DNA of 64,000 bases, from the NCBI GenBank assembly GCA_964016885.1, contig OZ024740.1, positions 96,348,001-96,412,000 of the forward strand. The letters run 5' to 3'. Position numbers and translations under genes: made by a program. The notes below the pieces were generated by a model, which saw nothing but the letters and a program-made list of their open reading frames with translations, did no database searches and was not told the origin of the DNA. Positions 1 through 62,440 of this stretch are shown piece after piece. How positions within the stretch are numbered: the stretch's first letter is position 1; every line of letters begins with the position of its first letter. Origin of the DNA: Eledone cirrhosa (lineage: Eukaryota).

Positions 1-572
1 TTGATGATAATGCTGATGATGTGGAGAAACTGAGGGATAATGGTGATGACTCACTTAATTGACTGAGTACGATTAATTGGATGCATTTTGATTTAGTGTA
101 TTACTAGTTATATGGTTGTGCGAATTATTAGGATGAGAGAGTGTGGGGGGCCTATAACCACACAGTCGTTATAATAATAGTTTGAGAAACACATAAATGA
201 TAATAAGCAGGAATAACACAGTAAATTGGTGATGATAATGACAAATGCATTGTTAAGGTTGATGAACACGATTATTATTATAATATTATTTACGATGTTG
301 ATAATTTTGATATATTTGACGTTGGTTTTCATGATGGAGATTACGCTGATAAACATGAAGTTAATGGTGTCCAAATATATATGTAGTATTCGTTAACTAT
401 TACATGGCCTCTAGTTACGTGAGATAACTTTTCGCGATATAAAATACTGATGGTGTTACCATATTTCTAATAACATATTTCTAATACCATATTTCTAATA
501 ACTGTTAAATACAGTGTGATAAACATCTTGCTTGGCATACGTGGAAATATTTTACAGTTTAAAAAAAAACCC

Positions 573-3454: not shown

Positions 3455-4340
3455 TTGTTGTATACACATATTGACTAAACACACACACCCATAAACTATA
3501 ACCTGCGACTTTTACATAGTTATGGAAACTCACATCTACCTAGTTGATGTTGTGTAAATTCCAATGAGAGAGACTTGCGTCTACATTAGAAACCGACTCT
3601 CTCTCTATTGGTAACTAATTATACTTAATATTTTTCTACAGACTGAGTGCTCTTGCCCGTTGATATTCCTACAAATGTATACGAAAGTATATTTATATGC
3701 ATATATAATGTGGTGTATCAATGTATTGTGATATATGTAAGTGAAATGTTTGTATGTTTTGGATGCCGTAAAATGCAAATGGGATACAATAATAGTCGGA
3801 AAATAATTCAGAGATGTGTAGATGAAGGCAAAATAGGCTGAAGAAATAAAAGAATAGGAATCACATAATGTTAGTTTAGTAATTCATTGGTGGCAAGACA
3901 TTTTCGGATTTACTATCCATTAAATGTGTGATCCGTGTGGAGAGAGATAGGTGAAATTCCAATTTGCCTCCCTGGTAGTTGTTTATTTCTTGAAATAATT
4001 AAAACAAAATTAACAGCAAACAGACAGTATAGATACATACATGCACACACACAACACACACACACACATACACACATACACACACATACACACACACACA
4101 CATAATACATATATTTATATAAAATGCATACAGTGACAAATCTCTAGTTTGGGAGTTCAGGAGCTGTGTTGAATTTGGAGTCACCCCTTATTTGTTATCA
4201 ATCCCTGGTTTGCTCTGGCACATAGTAGTAGTAGTACCTGTTAATACCTCATTCAAAGGTTAAATAATAACCTTACTCGAGTGGCGCCAGTAAGGTACTA
4301 TCATCCATTGAAAAGAACCGATTTCGGGAATGTTAAGCAC

Positions 4341-4394
<54 letters not shown>

Positions 4395-4434
4395 CGAAAT
4401 ATATGTCAATTGCACGAACTCATAATCCTTTATT

Positions 4435-4492
4435 TACCGATATATATATTTCGATGATAGCCATTGAATGGCTATGACCTCATGAGATAGTT
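4435..4492 (-). ncRNA. Degenerate type-I hammerhead ribozyme (PLE end)
   Basis: Minus strand CTCATGA-GGTCATAGCCAT-tca-ATGGCTATCATC-GAAA-TATATA-TA, then a ~45-nt tail into (TA)n. Core has one substitution and stem I is weak. Confidence 0.55.
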
Positions 4493-4691
4493 AGTCAGTT
4501 CTTAGATATGCCAGCTCTGGGTTTATGGTGTTGACGGTATCAGAGCCTTGGGACATATGACCTTGTTAGGGATAATTTAATGTTGTCAGAAGGAATAATC
4601 TTAATTGTCATTGGTCAGTTTGTAGATGGTAGTATGATTCGTATTTGACCTCAAACAATCGGGAGGTGTTGTAAAGTTCAAACCGTCAGAA

Positions 4692-4722
<31 letters not shown>

Positions 4723-4726
<4 letters not shown>

Positions 4727-5460
4727 GATATATTAACAAATGGAAACTATATTTATAAAACCATATTTATTTCATTATACATATTTCAAGGACATGAAGT
4801 TAAATTATGGTGCGCTTTCATCAGACAAAATATAATATAGATCAGTTTTGTAAATAAATATTGAATATTAAAAAAAGAATGCGACCATTTCTGTTGGAAG
4901 CTCCCGGATAGTAGGGTTACTAAATTTGTTTAGTCTATTATGCAAATTAGTGTCAGATATGTTTAAATCACAGTAGATTTAAAATAGGCCGTTGGAGTAT
5001 GGATAAAAGAGAAAAGGAAAAGGAAAAGAAAAAGAAAAAGAAAAAGAAAAAGAAAAAGAAAAAGAAAAAGAAAAAGAGAAACAGAAAGAGCAAACTCCAT
5101 ACTACAATGGCCTATTTTAAATCTAGTGTGATTTAAACAAATCCGACACTAATTTGCATAATAGACTAAACAAATTTAGTAACCCGACTATCCTGGAGCT
5201 TCCAACAGAAATGGTCACATTCTTTAAGGTATGTCAATATTTATTTATAAAATTGATCTATATTATATTTTGTCTGGTGAAAGCGCACCATAATTTAACT
5301 TGATGTCCTTGAAATATGTATAATGAAATAAATATGGTTTTATAAATATAGTTTCCATTTGTTAATATATCGTATTTTTACTCCAATAATTTGTTGAGTG
5401 CTTTATATCAGTTATAAAAATATTTGCTTGTTGTATCCCAACAAATTAAATAGAACTTCT
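4723..5460 (+). mobile_element. PLE-derived fold-back element, family A (copy A1)
   Basis: Inverted arms 4723-5003 and 5096-5375, (GAAAAA)n spacer, and an unpaired tail 5376-5460 homologous to the tails at 13960 and 33966. Flanked by (TA)n and (CA)n/(TA)n. Confidence 0.85.
4768..4832 (-). ncRNA. Type-I hammerhead ribozyme in the A1 arm
   Basis: TATTTTGT-CTGATGA-AAG..CTT-GAAA-TATGTA-TA-ATGAAATA. The mirror copy on + has CTGGTGA. Confidence 0.65.
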
Positions 5461-5480
5461 AGACACACACACACACAAAA

Positions 5481-5539
<59 letters not shown>

Positions 5540-13959: not shown

Positions 13960-14375
13960 AGTAGAAGGGATATTTAATTTGTTGGAAATTCAACAAATAT
14001 AAATGTTTATAACTGATTCAGGCACTGGACATATTTCTGGAGTAAATATTCAATGATGTTAAATAAATGGAAACTATATTTATAAAACCATATTTATTCT
14101 ATTATATATATTTCAAGGGTACCGACAACATTGTTACGCTTTCATCAGATGAAATACAAAGTGTGTTTTATACATTTTGATATAGCCAAAAAAACATACC
14201 TTATCAGTTGACTACCCAAGTAAAATTCAACTGATAAGGTATGTTTCCTTGGCTTTGTGAAAATACATTTTGTATTTTATCTGTTGAAAGCGTACCAAGT
14301 TTTTGGTACCCTTGAAATATATATAATAGAATAAAAAGGGTTTTATAAATATAGTTTACATGTATTTAATACCAT

Positions 14376-14376
<1 letters not shown>
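13960..14376 (-). mobile_element. PLE-derived fold-back element, family A (copy A2)
   Basis: Arms 14052-14211 and 14227-14376, 15-nt loop, tail 13960-14051. Hammerhead TATTTTAT-CTG(T/A)TGA-AAGCGTACCAA gttt TTGGTACCCTT-GAAA-TATATA-TA-ATAGAATA. (TA)n flanks. Confidence 0.85.
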
Positions 14377-14412
<36 letters not shown>

Positions 14413-26939: not shown

Positions 26940-27006
26940 TATTTTATCTGATGAGGACGTACTGTTGAACTTAACTCAGTTCCTCTGAAATATGTATAAT
27001 AAAATA
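26940..27006 (+). ncRNA. Type-I hammerhead ribozyme (solo PLE end)
   Basis: Perfect stem I TATTTTAT/ATAAAATA, CTGATGA, stem II ACTG..CAGT, GAAA-TATGTA-TA. A ~140-nt tail follows, then long (TA)n. Confidence 0.75.
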
Positions 27007-32950: not shown

Positions 32951-33921
32951 GATCAATTACGAATGGAATATTGTAAATCGTTATTGATGATGTGAGATAT
33001 AACGTTGATGGCGCATGAATGAGTATCCATGCTGTTATTGTGCGATACCCAAATGCTGTTTGGACTGATGTTAAGTTTTTGCATCCCTATTTATGTTTCA
33101 GGGCGAGTATGTATAGGTCACTGTTTAAATTGAAATTTATGGTATCGCCTAGAGCGGATTTTAACATCAAGACTCCTATCTCATTTAGTGTCAAGTCAGA
33201 TTGTACAAATGTTTCTATCATCACAGGCAAAGCAACCACATTGTGTACTACTGATTTATAGTGGGCAGAGAATTACGAAGACCATATTTTACTTATTTAT
33301 ATTATATTTCCGAGATACTATTTCGTTGTTACATATACAACCATAAGATACATTTTCCTATACACTCGTATCATTCCTCGTAAGAGATTTCCTGATTGTA
33401 ACAGATTTCCCGTTAACGATATATTTATTTCCATAAGATCTATATGGAAATGCAGATCTATTACAGTTAAGAATATTTGATCAATATTACACAATATATC
33501 GATAGTCGATAGACTAGATCTCAGACCTCATACACTTATCAAGTAGGGTGAAAATTGTCAAATCGGACCGAAGAGACAATGTTTCCACTGGTCTTATTAT
33601 CTGTCAGTCGCATTCTGTTTTCTTTTCACTTCATAAATCTAGTTTGTAAATAACATTATTCTTTCTGCACCATTTATTTAACATGTCCAACACCACCATT
33701 CTACAACAATATATATTATTATTATTTGATAATGCATTAAAATGATGAAACCGGTAATAGACAATTATTAAATATATAAATAAATCAACTAATACCTTAA
33801 CACTTCACAGAAAGTAAAATATTTCGTTTTAATCATTTTCTCACCCACAAAAAAAGAGAGGAATAAATAAAAACGGAAACAAATATGTTTTTCTTCCTAA
33901 TAATCGTCTTTTTCTCCCTTT

Positions 33922-33965
<44 letters not shown>

Positions 33966-33966
<1 letters not shown>

Positions 33967-34422
33967 AAGTTTTATTTAAATTGTTGGGTTAACAACGAGT
34001 AAATATTTATAACTGATATAAAAGCACTCAACAAGTATTTGGAGTATATTTACGATATTAAATAAATGGAAACTATATTTATAAAACCATATTTATTTCA
34101 TTATATATATTTCAGGGATATCATATAAAAAATATGTTATGCCTTCTTCAGACAAAATACAATATAAACAGTCTTATAAATAGATAGATTCGACATACCT
34201 TTCAACTTCGACTTCTATTTGAAAAGTTGATTTGGTACCAAATCAACTTTTCAAATAGAAGTCGAAGTTGAAAGGTATGTCGAATCTATCTATTTATAAG
34301 ACTGTTTATATTGTATTTTGTCTGAAGAAGGCATAACATATTTTTTATATGATATCCCTGAAATATATATAATGAAATAAATATGGTTTTATAAATATAG
34401 TTTCCATTTATTTAATATCGTA
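33966..34422 (-). mobile_element. PLE-derived fold-back element, family A (copy A3): perfect 372-bp palindrome plus tail
   Basis: 34051-34422 is self-reverse-complementary about GGT|ACC (34236/34237) with no loop. Tail 33966-34050. (TA)n on both sides. Confidence 0.92.
34314..34379 (+). ncRNA. Intact minimal type-I hammerhead (identical mirror at 34094-34159 on -)
   Basis: TATTTTGT-CTGAAGA-AGGcATAaCATAT ttttt ATATGaTATcCCT-GAAA-TATATA-TA-ATGAAATA. Confidence 0.82.
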
Positions 34423-34477
34423 TATATATATATATATATAAATATACGTATATATGTGTGTGTGTAATACTTAATAA

Positions 34478-34643
34478 TACTTCAAAAGGCATGCTTGCTG
34501 GGAACAGCAAGAAGACTCCGATCCGACACGTCCTGAATATCTGAGGCTGCAGGTAGCGGGTTTGATATACTTTTCAACAAACATTCCAGTTAAATAACAT
34601 CAATGATTGAGACTCAAAGAACAATAATAATAATAATAATAAA

Positions 34644-34676
<33 letters not shown>

Positions 34677-34677
34677 T
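34478..34677 (+). mobile_element. 3' tip of Dong family A with (TAA)n tail
   Basis: LQKACLLGTAR-encoding end and 3' UTR match 37455-37585 and 60048-60185. (TAA)n at 34622-34677. Confidence 0.85.
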
Positions 34678-37601
34678 GGTTGATATCCTAAACTTAGTGG
34701 TAGATTAAATGAACAATCATAGTTGGAAACCTATGAATCTAAGATATGCAGACAAGGAACACCAGCTAAGGTAAACAAAGTCATCCCATATCTTAAGGCG
34801 AGGAACCTTCACCAATGCAACAATATACTCAACGGAACAGCAACTGCGGTGAGGAAATTACTTGGCATAAAACGAGAGGAAACAACAAATAAGAAAGATC
34901 AGATCGTTGGTGGAAGAAATGACTGAATGGTCAAATCAGGGAAATGAGAAATTATATTGTAAAGATTTAGTCCCTACTGAATGGGACGCTACAAAATATC
35001 GACACTAAAAATAGACTGGAAATAAAGTACAAAACTAGGAGGAAAAAGCTAAATATTATGATAGAGGAACTGAAGAAACGCATTGCAGCAAAGAGTGCAA
35101 AAATTAGGCGATACGAGAACAGAGTCAGTTAGTATAGACAGAACCGCATGTTTGACAATAGCCAGAAGATGCTGTTTGGACAGCTTGAAGGGAAAGAAAG
35201 AGGCAACGACTTGATCCCTGAGGCGGAACAAACTAAAACATTCTGGAGAGGAATATGGGAGCAGGATGTTATACATAATGACCAGGCAGTGTGGATTGGG
35301 ACTGTACAAAAGCAGATTAGTGAACAAGCACACCAACAAACTGATTTAAGTATCACAGTTGAATATCTTAAAGGGCAGGCCAGAAAACTAACCAACTGGA
35401 AATATCCAAGCCCAGATGGTGTGCAGGGTTATTGGATTAATAATATAACATCCCTCCACCCGAAACTAACAACCATGTTCAATGACTGCTTCGGGTGAGG
35501 TACCAGAGTGGTTGACAAACGGTACCACAGTCCTGATAATGAAAGACCGAATCAACGGTAATGATGTTACCAACTATAGACCTACCACATGTCTATCCGT
35601 AATGTGGAAACTGTTAACAAACAATATGTCTGAGGAAATCTACCATCACCTCCATACAAATAACTTGTTACCGGACGAACAGAAAGGATGCCGAAAGAAG
35701 TTCCGTGGTACAAAAGACCAGTTACTTATTGATAAGATGGTATTGAGGAATTGAAATAGGAGACACACAATTGTTGCCATGCGATGGATAGACTACAGAA
35801 AGACATTCGACATGATGCCTCATTCTTGGTAACCAAAAGCCTATAGATATTCAAGGTGGCAGATAACAGCAGACAGTTGTTGAGCAAAAGTATGAAATCA
35901 AGGGAAATAGAATTAACATCGGGTGGAGAATCCTTGGGAGGGGTGAAGATGAAGAGAGATATCTTCCAGGGAGATAGTCGGTCCCCTCTGTTGTTTGTGA
36001 TTGCCCTGATACCCCTGACCATTATACTGCGAAAAGTGAGAGCAGTATACAAGTTGGGAAAAGGAGAGCTTACCATCAACCACTCCTCTTCAAGAACGAT
36101 CTTAAACTCTTTGTGAAGAGTGATAAGGAGTTGGATGTACTTTTGACACTGTCCGTATTTTCAGCAGTGATATATGTATGCAATTAAGTATTAATAATGT
36201 GGAGTTCTAGTGATGAAGAGGGGTATATTGAGCAGAAGCAACGGAATCCGGGTACCAACAGGTGAGATGATAAAGGAAATTGCCAATGAAGAAGAATACA
36301 AATATCTAGGTGTTCTGGAGGTAGATGACATAAATAACAAAATCACGAAGCAATAGATAAGATCTGAGTACATTAGGAGAGTAAGGAGCGTATTAAAATC
36401 ACATCTAAAGGAATGTCATAAGTGCAGTGAATTCCCGAGCTGTGTCTATTATTAGGTACAGTGCGGGAATTCTGATATGGAATGTTGCTGAACAAAAATA
36501 AATGGATAGGAAGACTAGGAAGCTATTGACTATATACAACATGTTCCACAAGAGGAGTGATGTCAATAGACTCTACTTAAAGAGATCTGAAGGCGAAAGA
36601 TGTCTTATGAGTATATATGGCTGTGTTCAGATGAAGAAAAACAACCTGCACAAATGCGTGACTGAGAGTAGCGAGCCAATGTTCAGAATTGTACTGAACG
36701 AGAGGACAATAGACCAGGGGACGTCCAAGGAGGAAATAACAACAAGGAGGAAGAGCAACCTTCATGACAGATCCCTTCCTAGTACCTTCTTTGAGAAAAC
36801 TGAATTTAGAGATCCACAGACATGGAACTGGTTAAAAATAGGAGACTCAAAAAGGCTACAAAAGGAATGCTAATGGATGGGCAAGAGAAGGGCCTCAGAA
36901 CGAAGTGGATGAAATACCAGATTTACAAGGAGGAGGCTATCCCACTGTGTACAATCTGTGGAAAAAGAGAGGAGACTGTGGCTTACATTGTATCCAAGTG
37001 TAAACACCTAGCCCAGACTCACTATAAAGGCTGGAGACATGATGTGATGGACAGGGTGGTCCACTGGCAGCAAAGTAAACAATTTACCACATTCTGAGAT
37101 GTGGTATGAGCACAGGCCAAAGTCGGTGATAGAAAACGATCAGGTGAAGGTGCTATGGGATTTTAGGATACAGACTTACAAGAAACTGGAATACAATAGG
37201 CCTGACCTTGTGGTTTTGGACAAGGAAAAAAGATCGTGCCTGATTGTAGATGTAGCCTGCCGATTAGACACGAGAGTGCAAGAAAAGGAGATGAGAAAAT
37301 TAACTGATACCAGGACTTAAAGTGGGATGTAAAAAAGATTTGGAACTGCCATGAAGTCAGAGTCGTCCCGATTGTCATAGGCGCACTAGTTAATATCTCG
37401 AAGAGTTTCCAAGGATGGTTATAGAAAATTAGTCCAGTCCCACTTTTTGGAACACTTCAAAGGCATGCTTGCTGGGAAAAACAAGAACCCTCCGATACGT
37501 CCCGAATATCTAAGGCTGCATGTAGCGCTTGCTTTTCATTTCAATAAACTTTCCAGTTAAAGAATATCAACGACTGAGACTCAAATAATAATAATAATAA
37601 C
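34678..37601 (+). mobile_element. 5'-truncated, decayed R4/Dong-clade LINE, family A
   Basis: NYRPTTCL, EQKGCR, KDQLLIDK, IFQGDS, YKYLG, CTICG..ETV and RPDLVV..VDVAC. Collinear with the 60120-63511 ORFs. (TAA)n at both ends. Confidence 0.92.
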
Positions 37602-48983: not shown

Positions 48984-51470
48984 GAAGAAGTGAAAAATAA
49001 CATGGTCAACAGTACAAAAAAGGGATTTATTTACTGTCTAACGATTGTTTCACTGAATAAGTTGTCTAAAAATTGCTGAACACTTGAAGCAGTGCCACTC
49101 AATTTCAAATAATATGTTAGCTTAAGTGAAATCATAGACTCGCTACCTACGTAAACCTCTTGTTGAGTGAAAGAACGCCGTACGCTACCACTATCCATAA
49201 TAAGATGTATTCACAACCTCTAACTGGATTACCTATAACGATATTTGGTTATCCTTTATATATATATATTACCTTTCATAACGAAGATTTACCTAGAAGC
49301 GGCCACAAAAACAAACAAGTCTATATACCTTGCACCAATAATACTTCAAACATACAACCCAATATTACCAGCAAACACCAAATGAAAAGCCCACACCTAA
49401 ATGCCACTCATACTACACCCCAAAATACCCACCTAAAACTTAATTTCTCTACCTCTTCTCACATAGAATATAATGACTTTCAAAAAACCATTCATCCTAT
49501 TACTCCAATATATGTTAACAACATTACTAACACAATTCCTAGTAATCAGACTAAAACACCTAAATCAGTTAATCTAACTAAACCTATATAGAATTAATAC
49601 AGTAATCCTAAGTCTCTTAGTAAACATCCTGATACATCGTATACATATAAAAAAACAATATCGAAACCGTAAGAGACGGGTTACTTTTTTAATGCTCTAT
49701 TTAATCTACAAATTAAAGATAATATCCCTAAAATGGGTTTACTATCCCAGATAAAAACTTCCCGCGAAACCATAAATACCATCAAATTTTAAATAGATCA
49801 AATGTCAAATTTTCCTACATCACTACCAAAACTATACAACAACATATAAGTGCGTACAACGCATATAAATGTAAAAAAACCACAAATATACCACCAACTC
49901 ATCAAACCAACAATAATACTAAAATAAACCACCACAAACCACCATCTCCTTCATCTATAACAAGTCGAGTAAATTCCACACCAAATTTGACTAACTCCCC
50001 TAATATAATATTCACGAATTGTTTTAACTGTAGATTCAAATGAAATTGCCCATTAAAGGGAAATTGTCTTATTAATAACATAGTCTATAAATGTAAAACT
50101 AAGAACTCCACTTATTCATATATAGGAGCTACATCTAACCAATTTAAAGTAATATTTAATACACACAAACATAGTTTTAAAAATGCCGCATAGCTAATAC
50201 AACATCCTTGGCTGAAACAATTAATAATTATAGAAAGAAAAATATCGATTACCGCCTGACCTGGAGTGTGTTCAAAAGGGCCAACACTTATCAAAATAAT
50301 ATGAGTGTAGGTTATGCTCCCAGGAACTATTTGATATCATGAAATCAAAGGATATCCTATTAAATAAGCGACAGGAATTAATTATATCTTGCAATCATAG
50401 AATTAGGAGAACCTTCAAATATTATAAACCTAATTAATATACAACTTAGACTTATATTTTACATATTATTATAATTATTTTTTTTTTATTTAGTTAACCT
50501 ATAATTAGTATTTTACTACAGAGAACTTCATAATTTGATTTACCTCTTAGAGCTCTCTTTTCATAAAATTAATACCTAAAAGTATACCTATAAACTAATT
50601 TAATTTCCTGTTATGAATCTAGATTCCTTGTAGTTTATATAAGATTGGTATTTCTCACTACTACCCTTATCCCAAAATATTACTTTCCTTCGTTTTTTAA
50701 CAACATTATTTAATAACATCTAATTCTTAGTTATCACATTGATATGTATTAATATAAATTTATCCCTATAAGTATACCTATAAATTAATTTAATTTCTTG
50801 TTATAGATCTAGATTCCTTGTGGTTTAAATAATATTGGTATTTCTCACTAATACCCCTACCCTAAGATTTTATTTTCCTTCGTTTTTAACATTATTCTTT
50901 AATAACATCAAATATTCGTGTACCCTTCGTTGGCTTGACTTCTTTTCATCCCCAAAGTATTATTTTCATTCAAAGTATTCTTTTCATTCAAAACATAAGT
51001 CTGCACACCTCTACACCTAAATTAAATTTCTACTACCATTATTCTCTCAACTTGACCTCTAACTACTTTTCTATTGGTCAATTCAAAACCTGTTCCCAAT
51101 CAGACATTTTATATTAATTCTTTGTTGTTTTTTTTCAATAAACAAATCTCATCATTTCTAAAGACAGCCTGTATATGTGAAGGTATGTATATTTCCTCTG
51201 ATAATTTGTAATATGTTTACATAGATCTATATGATATACATACCAACGTACATATACAACATAGAAACGATCGTAAAAGGATGAATTTTTTTTAACATAA
51301 GGAATTTGTTCTTTGTTTTTATTTCATTGTTTTTATTAATTCATCTTGAATCCGTTTTCCTATGATTTTCATGGAAGATGTTTGAATGCATCTCCTCTTT
51401 TCATGATATTTGAATAACATTGAGTTCTTCATACGGATTGGACAACACCGTATATTTTGCTAGATTTATC

Positions 51471-60119: not shown

Positions 60120-62309
60120 TCAGATATTCAGGACGTATCGGAGGGTTCTTGCCGTTCCAAGCAAGCATGCCTTTTGAAGCGTTCCAAAAAGCGTGAAGGG
60201 GCCGATTTTCTTTAACCATCCCTGGAAACCTTTGGAGATAGTCCCCAGTGCGCCTATGACAATCGGGATCACTTTGACTTCATGGCAGTTCCAAATCCTT
60301 TTCACCTCCCACTTTAGGTCCTGGTATCGGTTAATTTTCTCCCTCTCCTTCTCTTGCACTCTCGTGTCGAACGGGCAGGCCACATCCACAATCAGGCACG
60401 ATCTTTTTTCTTTGTCCACAACCACCAGGTCAGGTCTATTGTGTTCCAGTTTTTTGTCCGTCTGTATCCTAAAATCCCACAGCACCTTCACCTGACTGTT
60501 CTCCATCACCGCCTCTGGCCTATGCTCATACCATTTCTCAGAATGTGGTAGATTGTTTACTTTGCACAGGTGCCAGTCGATCACCCTGCCCATCACATCG
60601 TGTCTCCAGCCCTTATAGTGGGTCTGGGCTAGGTGTTTACACTCGGACACAATGTGAGCCACAGTCTCCTCTCTCTCTCCACAGATCCTGCACAGTGGGC
60701 TAGCCTCCTCCTTGTAGATATGGTGCTTCAACCACTTCGTTTTGAGGGCCTGCTCCTGCGCAGCCATTAGCATTCCTTCTGTAGCCTTTTTGAGGTCTCC
60801 TCTTCTCAACCAGTTCCATGTCTGTGGATCTCTAAATTCAGTTTTCTCAAAGAAGGTACTATGAAGGGATTTTCCCTTAAGGCTGCTCTTCCTCCTTGAT
60901 GTTAGTTCCTCCTTGGATATCCCCTGGCCTACTGTCCCCTCCTTCAGTACAGCTCTGAGCATTGGCTCCTTACTATAGGTCACGTATTTGTATAGGTTGT
61001 TTTTCTCCATCTGAACACAGTCCTCTATGCTGATAAGACCTCTTCCACCCTCAGATCTCCTTAGGTAGAGTCTATCGACATCACTCCTCTTGTGGAACAT
61101 GTTGTAGATAGTCAATAGCTTCCTAGTCTTCCTATCCATTTCTTTTTGTTCAGCAACATTCCATCTCAGAATTCCCGCACTGTACCTAATAATAGACACA
61201 GCTCGGGAATTTACTGCGCTTATGGCATTTCTGCTGTTCAGATGTGACTTCAATACGCTCCTTACTCTCCGAATGTATTCAGTTCTTAACAATTCCTTCA
61301 TTTTTTTGTTCTTTATGCCATCAGCCTCCAGAACGCCCAAATACTTGTATCCTTCCTCAGAGTCAATTTCCTTTATCATCTCACCTGTTGGTATCTGGAT
61401 CCCGTTACTTCTGCTCAACCTACCCCTCCTCATCACAATGACTCCACATTTACCAATACCAAACTGCATACATATATCACTGCTGAAAATACGGAGAGTG
61501 TCAACAAGCACATCCAACTCCTTCTCACTTTTCCCGAAGAGCTTAAGATCGTCCATGAAGAGGAGGTGATTGATGGTAAGCTCTCTCCTTCCCAACTTGT
61601 ATCCTGCTCTCACTTTTCGCAGCATAATGGTCAAGGGCATCAGGGCAAGGACAAACAACAGAGGGGACAGGCTATCTCCCTGGAAGATACCTCTCTTGAT
61701 CTTCACGCTTCCCAAGTATACTCCAGTTGATGTCAACTCTGTCTCCCAGGACCCCATACTCCTGCCCAGCAACTGTCTGATGTTATCTGCCACCCTGAAG
61801 ATCTCCAGGCTTTTGGTGATCCAGGAATGAGGCACCATGTCAAATGCCTTTCTGTAGTCTATCCATCCCATGGCAAGATCAGTGTGTCTCCTCCTGCAAT
61901 TCACCATTACCATCTTATCAATAAGCAACTGGTCCTTTGTACCACGTGACTTATTTCGGCATCCTTTCTGTTCGTCCGGCAACAAGTTGTTTGTGTGGAG
62001 GTGATGGTAGATGTCCTCAGACACAATGCTCGTCAACAGTTTCCACATTACGGGCAGACATGTGATAGGTCTATAGTTGGTAACATCATTACCCTTGATT
62101 CGGTCTTTCATTATCAGAACTGTGGTACCTTTTGTCAACCACTCTGGCACCTCACCCGACACCAAGCAGTCATTGAACATGGCCGTCAGCTTCGGGTGGA
62201 GGGATGTTAAATGTTTAATCCAATACACCTGCACACCATCTGGGCCTGGTGATTTCCAGTTGGTTAGTTTTTTGGCTTGCCCCTTAAGAGTTTCAACTGT
62301 GATATTCAA
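60120..62309 (-). CDS. Reverse transcriptase-CCHC-restriction-like endonuclease (open C-terminal 729 codons of the element ORF)
   Basis: NYRPITCL, WIDYRKAFDMVPH, GIFQGDSLSPLLF, HLLFMDDLKL, YKYLG, CRICG..H..C, RHD, RPDLVV..VDVACP..EK..Y.DL. Confidence 0.9.
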   Translation of the reverse strand: MNITVETLKGQAKKLTNWKSPGPDGVQVYWIKHLTSLHPKLTAMFNDCLVSGEVPEWLTKGTTVLIMKDRIKGNDVTNYRPITCLPVMWKLLTSIVSEDIYHHLHTNNLLPDEQKGCRNKSRGTKDQLLIDKMVMVNCRRRHTDLAMGWIDYRKAFDMVPHSWITKSLEIFRVADNIRQLLGRSMGSWETELTSTGVYLGSVKIKRGIFQGDSLSPLLFVLALMPLTIMLRKVRAGYKLGRRELTINHLLFMDDLKLFGKSEKELDVLVDTLRIFSSDICMQFGIGKCGVIVMRRGRLSRSNGIQIPTGEMIKEIDSEEGYKYLGVLEADGIKNKKMKELLRTEYIRRVRSVLKSHLNSRNAISAVNSRAVSIIRYSAGILRWNVAEQKEMDRKTRKLLTIYNMFHKRSDVDRLYLRRSEGGRGLISIEDCVQMEKNNLYKYVTYSKEPMLRAVLKEGTVGQGISKEELTSRRKSSLKGKSLHSTFFEKTEFRDPQTWNWLRRGDLKKATEGMLMAAQEQALKTKWLKHHIYKEEASPLCRICGEREETVAHIVSECKHLAQTHYKGWRHDVMGRVIDWHLCKVNNLPHSEKWYEHRPEAVMENSQVKVLWDFRIQTDKKLEHNRPDLVVVDKEKRSCLIVDVACPFDTRVQEKEREKINRYQDLKWEVKRIWNCHEVKVIPIVIGALGTISKGFQGWLKKIGPFTLFGTLQKACLLGTARTLRYVLNI

Positions 62310-62440
62310 ATCAGTCTGTTGCTGTGCCTGCTCACCGATCTCCCTCTGTACTGTCTCAATCCACCCTGCCTGGGCATTGTGTCTAACATCCTGCTACCAT
62401 ATTCCTCTCCAGAATGTTTTAGCTTGTTCCGCCCCAGGGA

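Follow-up and report, generated by a model that had tools for sequence, protein, structure and literature searches.

A loop-less palindrome in the Eledone cirrhosa genome, identified by its motifs as a young Penelope-like terminal repeat, and its probable origin by priming at two sites

How can an insertion come to form an exact palindrome without a loop and with a tail on one side only? The question is raised by a locus in a 64,000-nt stretch of the Eledone cirrhosa genome (hereafter the window, which contains no N). Positions 34051-34422 form an exact palindrome of 372 bp, with arms of 186 bp each around the centre TTTGGTACCAAA; mismatch begins at 34050/34423, and all others of the window's 25 longest palindromes are microsatellites. 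In our element numbering, q1 corresponds to 34236 on the minus strand and to 34237 on the plus strand, and q273 to 33964. The tailed arm (33964-34236, minus strand) covers q1-q273, the tail-less arm (34237-34422, plus strand) covers q1-q186, and the two meet at GGTACC (34234-34239). The insert is non-coding and lies between an (AT)19 microsatellite (33926-33963) and a (TA)n run (approximately 34421-34440). Family members generally sit inside (TA)n, where a target-site duplication cannot be told apart. The exactness of the palindrome, its GGTACC centre and the (TA)n on both flanks had all been reported by a first-pass annotation and were reproduced here; the tail is one-sided, as described there, but measures 87 bp (33964-34050, minus strand) instead of 85 bp. 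All 30 compared loci end at TTTGC/AT, with AT directly after the element end, two of them being tandem read-through into an open reading frame (ORF).

A search of the 3.0-Gb genome with the arm gave 941 first-look candidates, of which 40 were scored; 29 of 29 other best copies differ from the arm at one base. This base, in the loop of hammerhead stem II, is a T at 34346 (plus strand, mirrored at 34127) where the family has A. A 40-mer with the family base has 705 exact matches genome-wide and the version with T only three, namely both arms and locus L033. The latter was considered as donor of the rare T and rejected, as it carries further differences that are absent at the locus. A wider core pattern has 2212 matches in the genome. 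Tandem copies occur in L039, L085, L115 and L124, and partial tandems yield penelope-like terminal repeats (pLTRs). In L039, a different reverse transcriptase (RT) frame of the YRDD type lies directly upstream of the family copy (3815-4948).

Longer copies carry a single ORF, many copies of which are broken by small frameshifts; among the 14 long loci scanned, it is intact in one (740 aa, L124). This ORF contains YRDD, and its structure model (pLDDT 85) has telomerase RTs as best fold matches (ranks 1-2), as expected of a telomerase-related RT. Pfam, PDB sequence and profile searches gave no matches for it; the homolog P0012 matches RVT_1 below the cut-off, and a homolog at 43% carries the label Octopus bimaculoides. 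By eye, the C-terminus reads IIY...YVG followed by R, H, E and N, which are kept in homologs, with no profile match to GIY-YIG. The L124 protein further has RWR and DKT (RWK or RWR and DKT are found in all four homologs read, one with a variant DKT context), the linker CNCRDRSKC, a single C between IIY and YVG, and CDLC and CRH; CCHH is absent. The Hydra clade is marked by RWK, DKT, a CxCX5C linker, the lack of CCHH, and CxxC and CxH around E/N (PMC8557442), and two further traits of that clade, insertion in (TA)n and a hammerhead in the pLTR, are also present. Judged by these motifs, the palindrome belongs to a young Penelope-like element (PLE) of Hydra-clade type and consists of its terminal repeat, the pLTR, alone. 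This identity had escaped the first-pass annotation, as had the fact that the inverted-plus-tail layout is already published. A repeat annotation of octopus names PLEs, with hammerheads and palindromes unmentioned in the consulted part of that paper (PMC13282606).

Other PLE remains in the window include pLTR pieces that carry hammerhead motifs and end in (TA)n, at 26948 (plus strand), 4824 (minus strand) and 5226-5537 (plus strand), the hammerhead core near 5270 being broken (CTGGTGA). By tblastn, a degraded stretch at 49792-50422 (plus strand) matches the endonuclease region of PLEs. RT-encoding LINE pieces in (AAT)n were found at 34485-37600 and 60120-62393 (minus strand), with repeats at 34485/37459 and a 757-aa frame that ends QKACLLGTARTLR; these pieces may be Dong/R4-like. 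Inspection by eye of 40 frames of at least 120 aa revealed no host exon; the window may still lie in an intron.

The hammerhead deserves a closer look. Each arm contains CUGAAGA (at q86), an 11-pair stem II, GAAA, a 14-pair stem I with one bulge, a stem III that consists only of the self-complementary AUAUAUAU, and the cleavage triplet AUA. All drawn pairs are standard, and none of 3000 arm shuffles matched the manual descriptor. On the plus strand the motif covers 34307-34385, with the core at 34322-34328, GAAA at 34360-34363, stem III at 34363-34370 and a predicted cut after 34371; its mirror on the minus strand covers 34088-34166, with the core starting at 34151 and a predicted cut after 34102. 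All elements of a type I core (CUGANGA, GAAA, three stems and an NUH site) can thus be drawn. An Rfam search returned no hammerhead at the gathering score or up to E 10; matches to miRNA families lay below the gathering score and were discarded, since any long hairpin gives them. The hammerhead fold of the 85-nt piece is computed at -6.3 kcal/mol, as against -10.5 kcal/mol for the minimum-energy fold. Across the five related hammerhead sequences of the window, pairing holds in 60 of 61 cells and stem II has two double-sided changes, but with so few sequences the covariation is not significant (74 of 500 shuffles equalled the score). We regard the hammerhead as a minimal, dimer-type motif with predicted cleavage, as a very short palindromic stem III is typical of hammerheads working as tandem double structures (PMC6466107).

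The first-pass annotation had read a complete hammerhead in each arm and on both strands. The motif itself is there, in the minimal form just described, and its presence on both strands is a mere consequence of the palindrome, as one transcript holds one sense hammerhead. With a single sense hammerhead per strand, in inverted layout, the locus lacks the defining feature of non-LTR retrozymes, a tandem array in which two or more sense hammerheads follow one another (preprint 10.64898/2026.07.22.740005, consulted in part). RNA of the whole palindrome is computed to fold into 184 pairs at -282 kcal/mol, and a transcript from either side would meet the antisense arm first; the hammerhead would therefore be sequestered. 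The suggestion that such a hairpin, if transcribed, hides its own ribozyme is consistent with this prediction.

End points of the arms are informative for the way in which the insertions arise. Altogether 97 arms were compared at their 3′ ends: 48 end at site 1 (about q184-192), 43 are tailed and end at site 2 (q273-279), two are tandem run-ons and four end elsewhere. The tail of our locus is the interval between these end points (q186-192 and q273-279), and its tail-less arm ends at site 1. Each 3′ end point directly precedes one copy of the same ~32-nt motif (local score 42, found in 0 of 2000 shuffles); the first copy, after site 1, lies at 34014-34044 (minus strand), and the second, past site 2, is present only in tandem elements. 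A better (AT)4 match at q127-134 serves as end point in only 2 of the 97 arms, and site 1 is therefore not merely a place of microhomology. Tail-less arms also stand alone (L093, L100, L113, L119 and L121), which means that site 1 can start an insertion. In L090 and L101, arms break into AT repeats at q135, which is the predicted hammerhead cut site and also an (AT)4 run.

Among 96 arms, 19 have their 5′ ends at q-3..+6, seven at q-60..-4 and 25 at q7..63. The pile-up lies at TCACT, ~24 nt past a TATAA word and ~70 nt upstream of the hammerhead, and the GGTACC junction of our locus falls 2-3 nt inside it. We infer that the TCACT edge is the RNA start of the element; the same TCACT was called initiator-like in a rotifer PLE (PMC3846280), and the promoter in Drosophila lies inside the pLTR (PMC2377424). 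Alternatively, the pile-up may reflect stopping of the RT at a U-run immediately upstream, and of seven upstream partial tandem copies read, which start at q71, 104, -64, -437, -497, -1424 and -1879, none starts at TCACT. A non-family base before ACTACC was found in 96 genome matches, with 56 junctions, about four of which look like internal deletions. Sixteen of the 56 have an extra G, an excess against base composition (p 6e-4) but not against an empirical control (12/40); outside the hot spot the figure is 2/17 (p 0.20), and in 12 of the 16 cases the opposite arm would also supply the G. As a trace of the cap, this G is only suggested. At 13960-14385, a related PLE subfamily has left an old fold-back with arms that are 80% alike, a tail on the left and the junction G/ACTACC at 14210/14211, so that one arm starts at ACTACC here too; such palindromes evidently persist and decay.

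Inverted pairs were surveyed in 67 loci of contig 1, drawn from the 40-mer list. L090 and two pairs with gaps >310 nt were excluded before pair and permutation counts, 37 redundant loci were removed before the letter and permutation analyses, and low-complexity columns were dropped before letter counts. An adjacent inverted arm is present in 41 of the 67 loci, in 14 of which both arms start at q-6..25. The combination of a pLTR with an adjacent inverted, 5′-truncated copy and a one-sided tail, as published for PLEs together with head-to-head pLTRs and junction palindromes (PMC8557442, PMC3846280), is hence the common state, and the locus is ordinary for its family. Copies with the same architecture, whose lack would have spoken against the first-pass interpretation and for which it had proposed a genome search, do exist: five loci have exactly the same centre, and L137 is also an exact palindrome over 186 bp. 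The common centre, together with the single base that separates the arm from its best relatives, agrees with the young age proposed earlier. Inverted stubs of ~12-17 nt that start at site 1 were seen in L043, L147, L186 and L189, and short repeats of the 5′-most sequence (ACTACCAAA...) at the junction, as if the RT had restarted at the RNA end, in L009, L176, L181 and L183.

We propose, with a probability of roughly 0.6, that the palindrome is a twin-primed pLTR insertion on sense RNA whose arms were joined at the RNA 5′ end. Within a (TA)n run, the element protein would cut both DNA strands; one strand would be primed at site 2 and give the tailed arm, the other at site 1 and give the tail-less arm, each priming site being directly followed by a separate copy of the ~32-nt motif. 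Sense RNA would serve as template for both cDNAs, both of which would run off at the putative 5′ end at TCACT, and the self-complementarity of GGTACC would join them without a loop. The hammerhead would be carried along uncut, as stem III is expected to form only with a further sense copy, and neither strand of the locus offers one.

The main competitor, which we consider unlikely although it retains real weight, is the fold-back of the first-pass annotation: a single cDNA from site 2 snaps back and copies itself as far as site 1, with a later central deletion where the arms differ. It is close to the self-priming of PMC3846280, which was described on an antisense template, whereas the 5′ edge here lies on an initiator-like motif of the sense strand. 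Fold-back readily accounts for the identity of our two arms, including the rare T found on both of them and at only three places against 705, so that copying of the second arm from the first is possible at this locus. As a plain rule for the family it does not hold. Pairs of one tailed and one tail-less arm make up 38 of the 41 (93%), as a copy stopping short would give, but the other three have two tails, which counts against it; pairs without any tail are absent. The tail-less arm is the longer one in 14 mixed pairs and the tailed arm in 11, with 13 within 10 nt. In the former 14 of 41 pairs (the complex locus L130 included), it extends beyond the 5′ end of the tailed arm by 15 to 3,326 nt, where it refers to the tail-less arm, and fold-back would need later deletions in the tailed arm of up to 3,326 nt; in these 14 pairs each arm has sequence of its own, and neither can be a plain copy of the other. 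Solo tail-less arms and the separate motif copy at site 1 also speak against fold-back, and self-copying would meet the better (AT)4 first.

Letter statistics are more even-handed. Arms of a pair share 70 non-majority letters, compared with 6.7 in permutations (maximum 26; 500 runs, 56 pairs), and discordant ones number 35 in the same pairs against 146 when permuted, which indicates that both arms come from one donor type. Letters seen in no other sampled locus are on both arms in 32 cases and on one arm in 84 (19,666 columns); the former favour fold-back, as does the correlation of paired 5′ ends (Spearman 0.46, 56 pairs). A donor with the arm-shared rare letters was not found in any of three tests; for L037 and L044, the search gave only the two arms or a third copy with one of six letters. 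The missing donor would be explained by a copying error that reached both arms, and equally by a donor absent from the assembly. Both it and the correlated 5′ ends count against twin priming, and a perfect fold-back followed by a one-sided central deletion would give either asymmetry, which weakens the twin-priming model further.

Improbable, in our estimate, is a secondary origin of arm identity, in which the rare base passed from one arm to the other by arm-to-arm conversion or when the assembly consensus was polished. This base stands at the edge of a T-run, is absent at 34346 from the contigs of sequencing runs X1, X3 and X4, and belongs to a family in which frameshifts are widespread, all of which would suit such an origin; the runs lack depth on 33300-33521, however, and may simply lack this allele. 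Near-symmetric pairs have 11 rare letters on one arm and a single shared one (3,137 columns; the locus base is set apart, since L033 has it), and short palindromes are therefore not generally homogenised; the arms of the old palindrome at 13960-14385, at 80% identity, say the same. Still less credible is the idea that the palindrome spreads as a whole, be it as a self-standing mobile unit or under selection as a dsRNA or ribozyme regulator. Besides the five loci with our centre, three others (L067, L076 and L105) have a common centre at q4/q12, as this idea would predict, but the shared centres fall on self-complementary words, the five differ in subfamily letters (L138 from our locus in several places), and arm and junction sizes vary continuously from 17-nt stubs to 3.4 kb. 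Finally, a chimeric fold-back read or assembly artefact has a negligible probability, for although four sequencing runs over 33300-34400 yielded short repeat-derived records only, none of them spanning the locus (zero depth at 33300-33521, the right junction outside the covered range), its ends are asymmetric and typical of the family with the tail on one side only, its left and right flanks differ where a fold-back read would mirror them, and the layout recurs in 41 of 67 loci.

A fuller version of the twin-priming reading is held more tentatively, at somewhat less than even odds: a protein dimer may bind the two motif copies, prime both strands and join the cDNAs at the 5′ end of capped mRNA. 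If this is true, the palindrome centre maps the transcription start, the insertions record the last step of Penelope transposition, head-to-head repeats no longer need antisense self-priming as their origin, and the RNA motif recognised is named. The origin of the inverted repeats and tails of PLEs has been called open (PMC8557442, PMC11167929). In the open literature, taken without supplements and subscription content and in part by excerpt, we found no paper that proposes two-site twin priming for inverted arms of PLEs or describes this family. Inverted pLTRs, junction palindromes and tails are known already, and what is added here are family statistics that bear on the mechanism. With hundreds of young copies, an intact ORF and two motif-marked start sites, the family is well suited to such work. 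Its sharp 5′ edge lies ~70 nt before the hammerhead, so that clustering of 5′ ends due to an RNA start can be told from clustering due to the ribozyme edge. Transcription of the many long perfect hairpins would make them a genome-wide source of dsRNA.

In LINE-1 twin priming, each of the two target strands serves as a primer, and microhomology joins the resulting cDNAs. The model proposed here likewise has two target-strand primers and joining by microhomology, but LINE-1 inversions are non-overlapping, whereas here the primers would start near the same place and a true inverted duplication would result. A closer parallel is Poseidon_Ac, a PLE whose protein cleaves and extends both strands in vitro and for which two internal RT start sites on the RNA define the tail (PMC11167929); its target is AT-rich as well, and the hammerhead is dispensable for insertion there. 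Poseidon_Ac belongs to another clade and has its sites in the ORF, whereas those of our family are upstream of the ATG, each with its own motif, and the consulted part of that paper gives no model for inverted arms.

The minimal, dimer-type hammerheads (type I) that occur in PLEs and in animal retrozymes likewise combine an intact core with a very short palindromic stem III, but double hammerheads need tandem sense copies (PMC6466107), whereas our locus, with a single hammerhead on each strand, is no tandem retrozyme. With the Hydra clade of C-terminal EN+ PLEs, as far as described in the sections consulted (PMC8557442), the family shares RW[K/R], DKT, CxCX5C, CxxC/CxH and the lack of CCHH, as well as the pLTR hammerhead and (TA)n targets, an assignment drawn here from motifs; its C-terminal domain is a candidate for the GIY-YIG type of that clade. 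It differs in its unit of ~3.85-3.9 kb against 'generally <3 kb', in RWR against RWK, and in its tail of 87 bp, where 30-40 bp are stated for PLEs. The published PLE insertion unit (PMC8557442 fig. 2; PMC3846280) also has head-to-head pLTRs, a junction palindrome and a one-sided tail, as well as a TCACT initiator-like motif ~20-25 nt past a TATA-like word (PMC3846280), whereas the whole insert at our locus is the pLTR alone. In PMC3846280, as excerpted, junction palindromes are read as self-priming on an antisense template; the family described here fits priming of sense RNA at two sites better.
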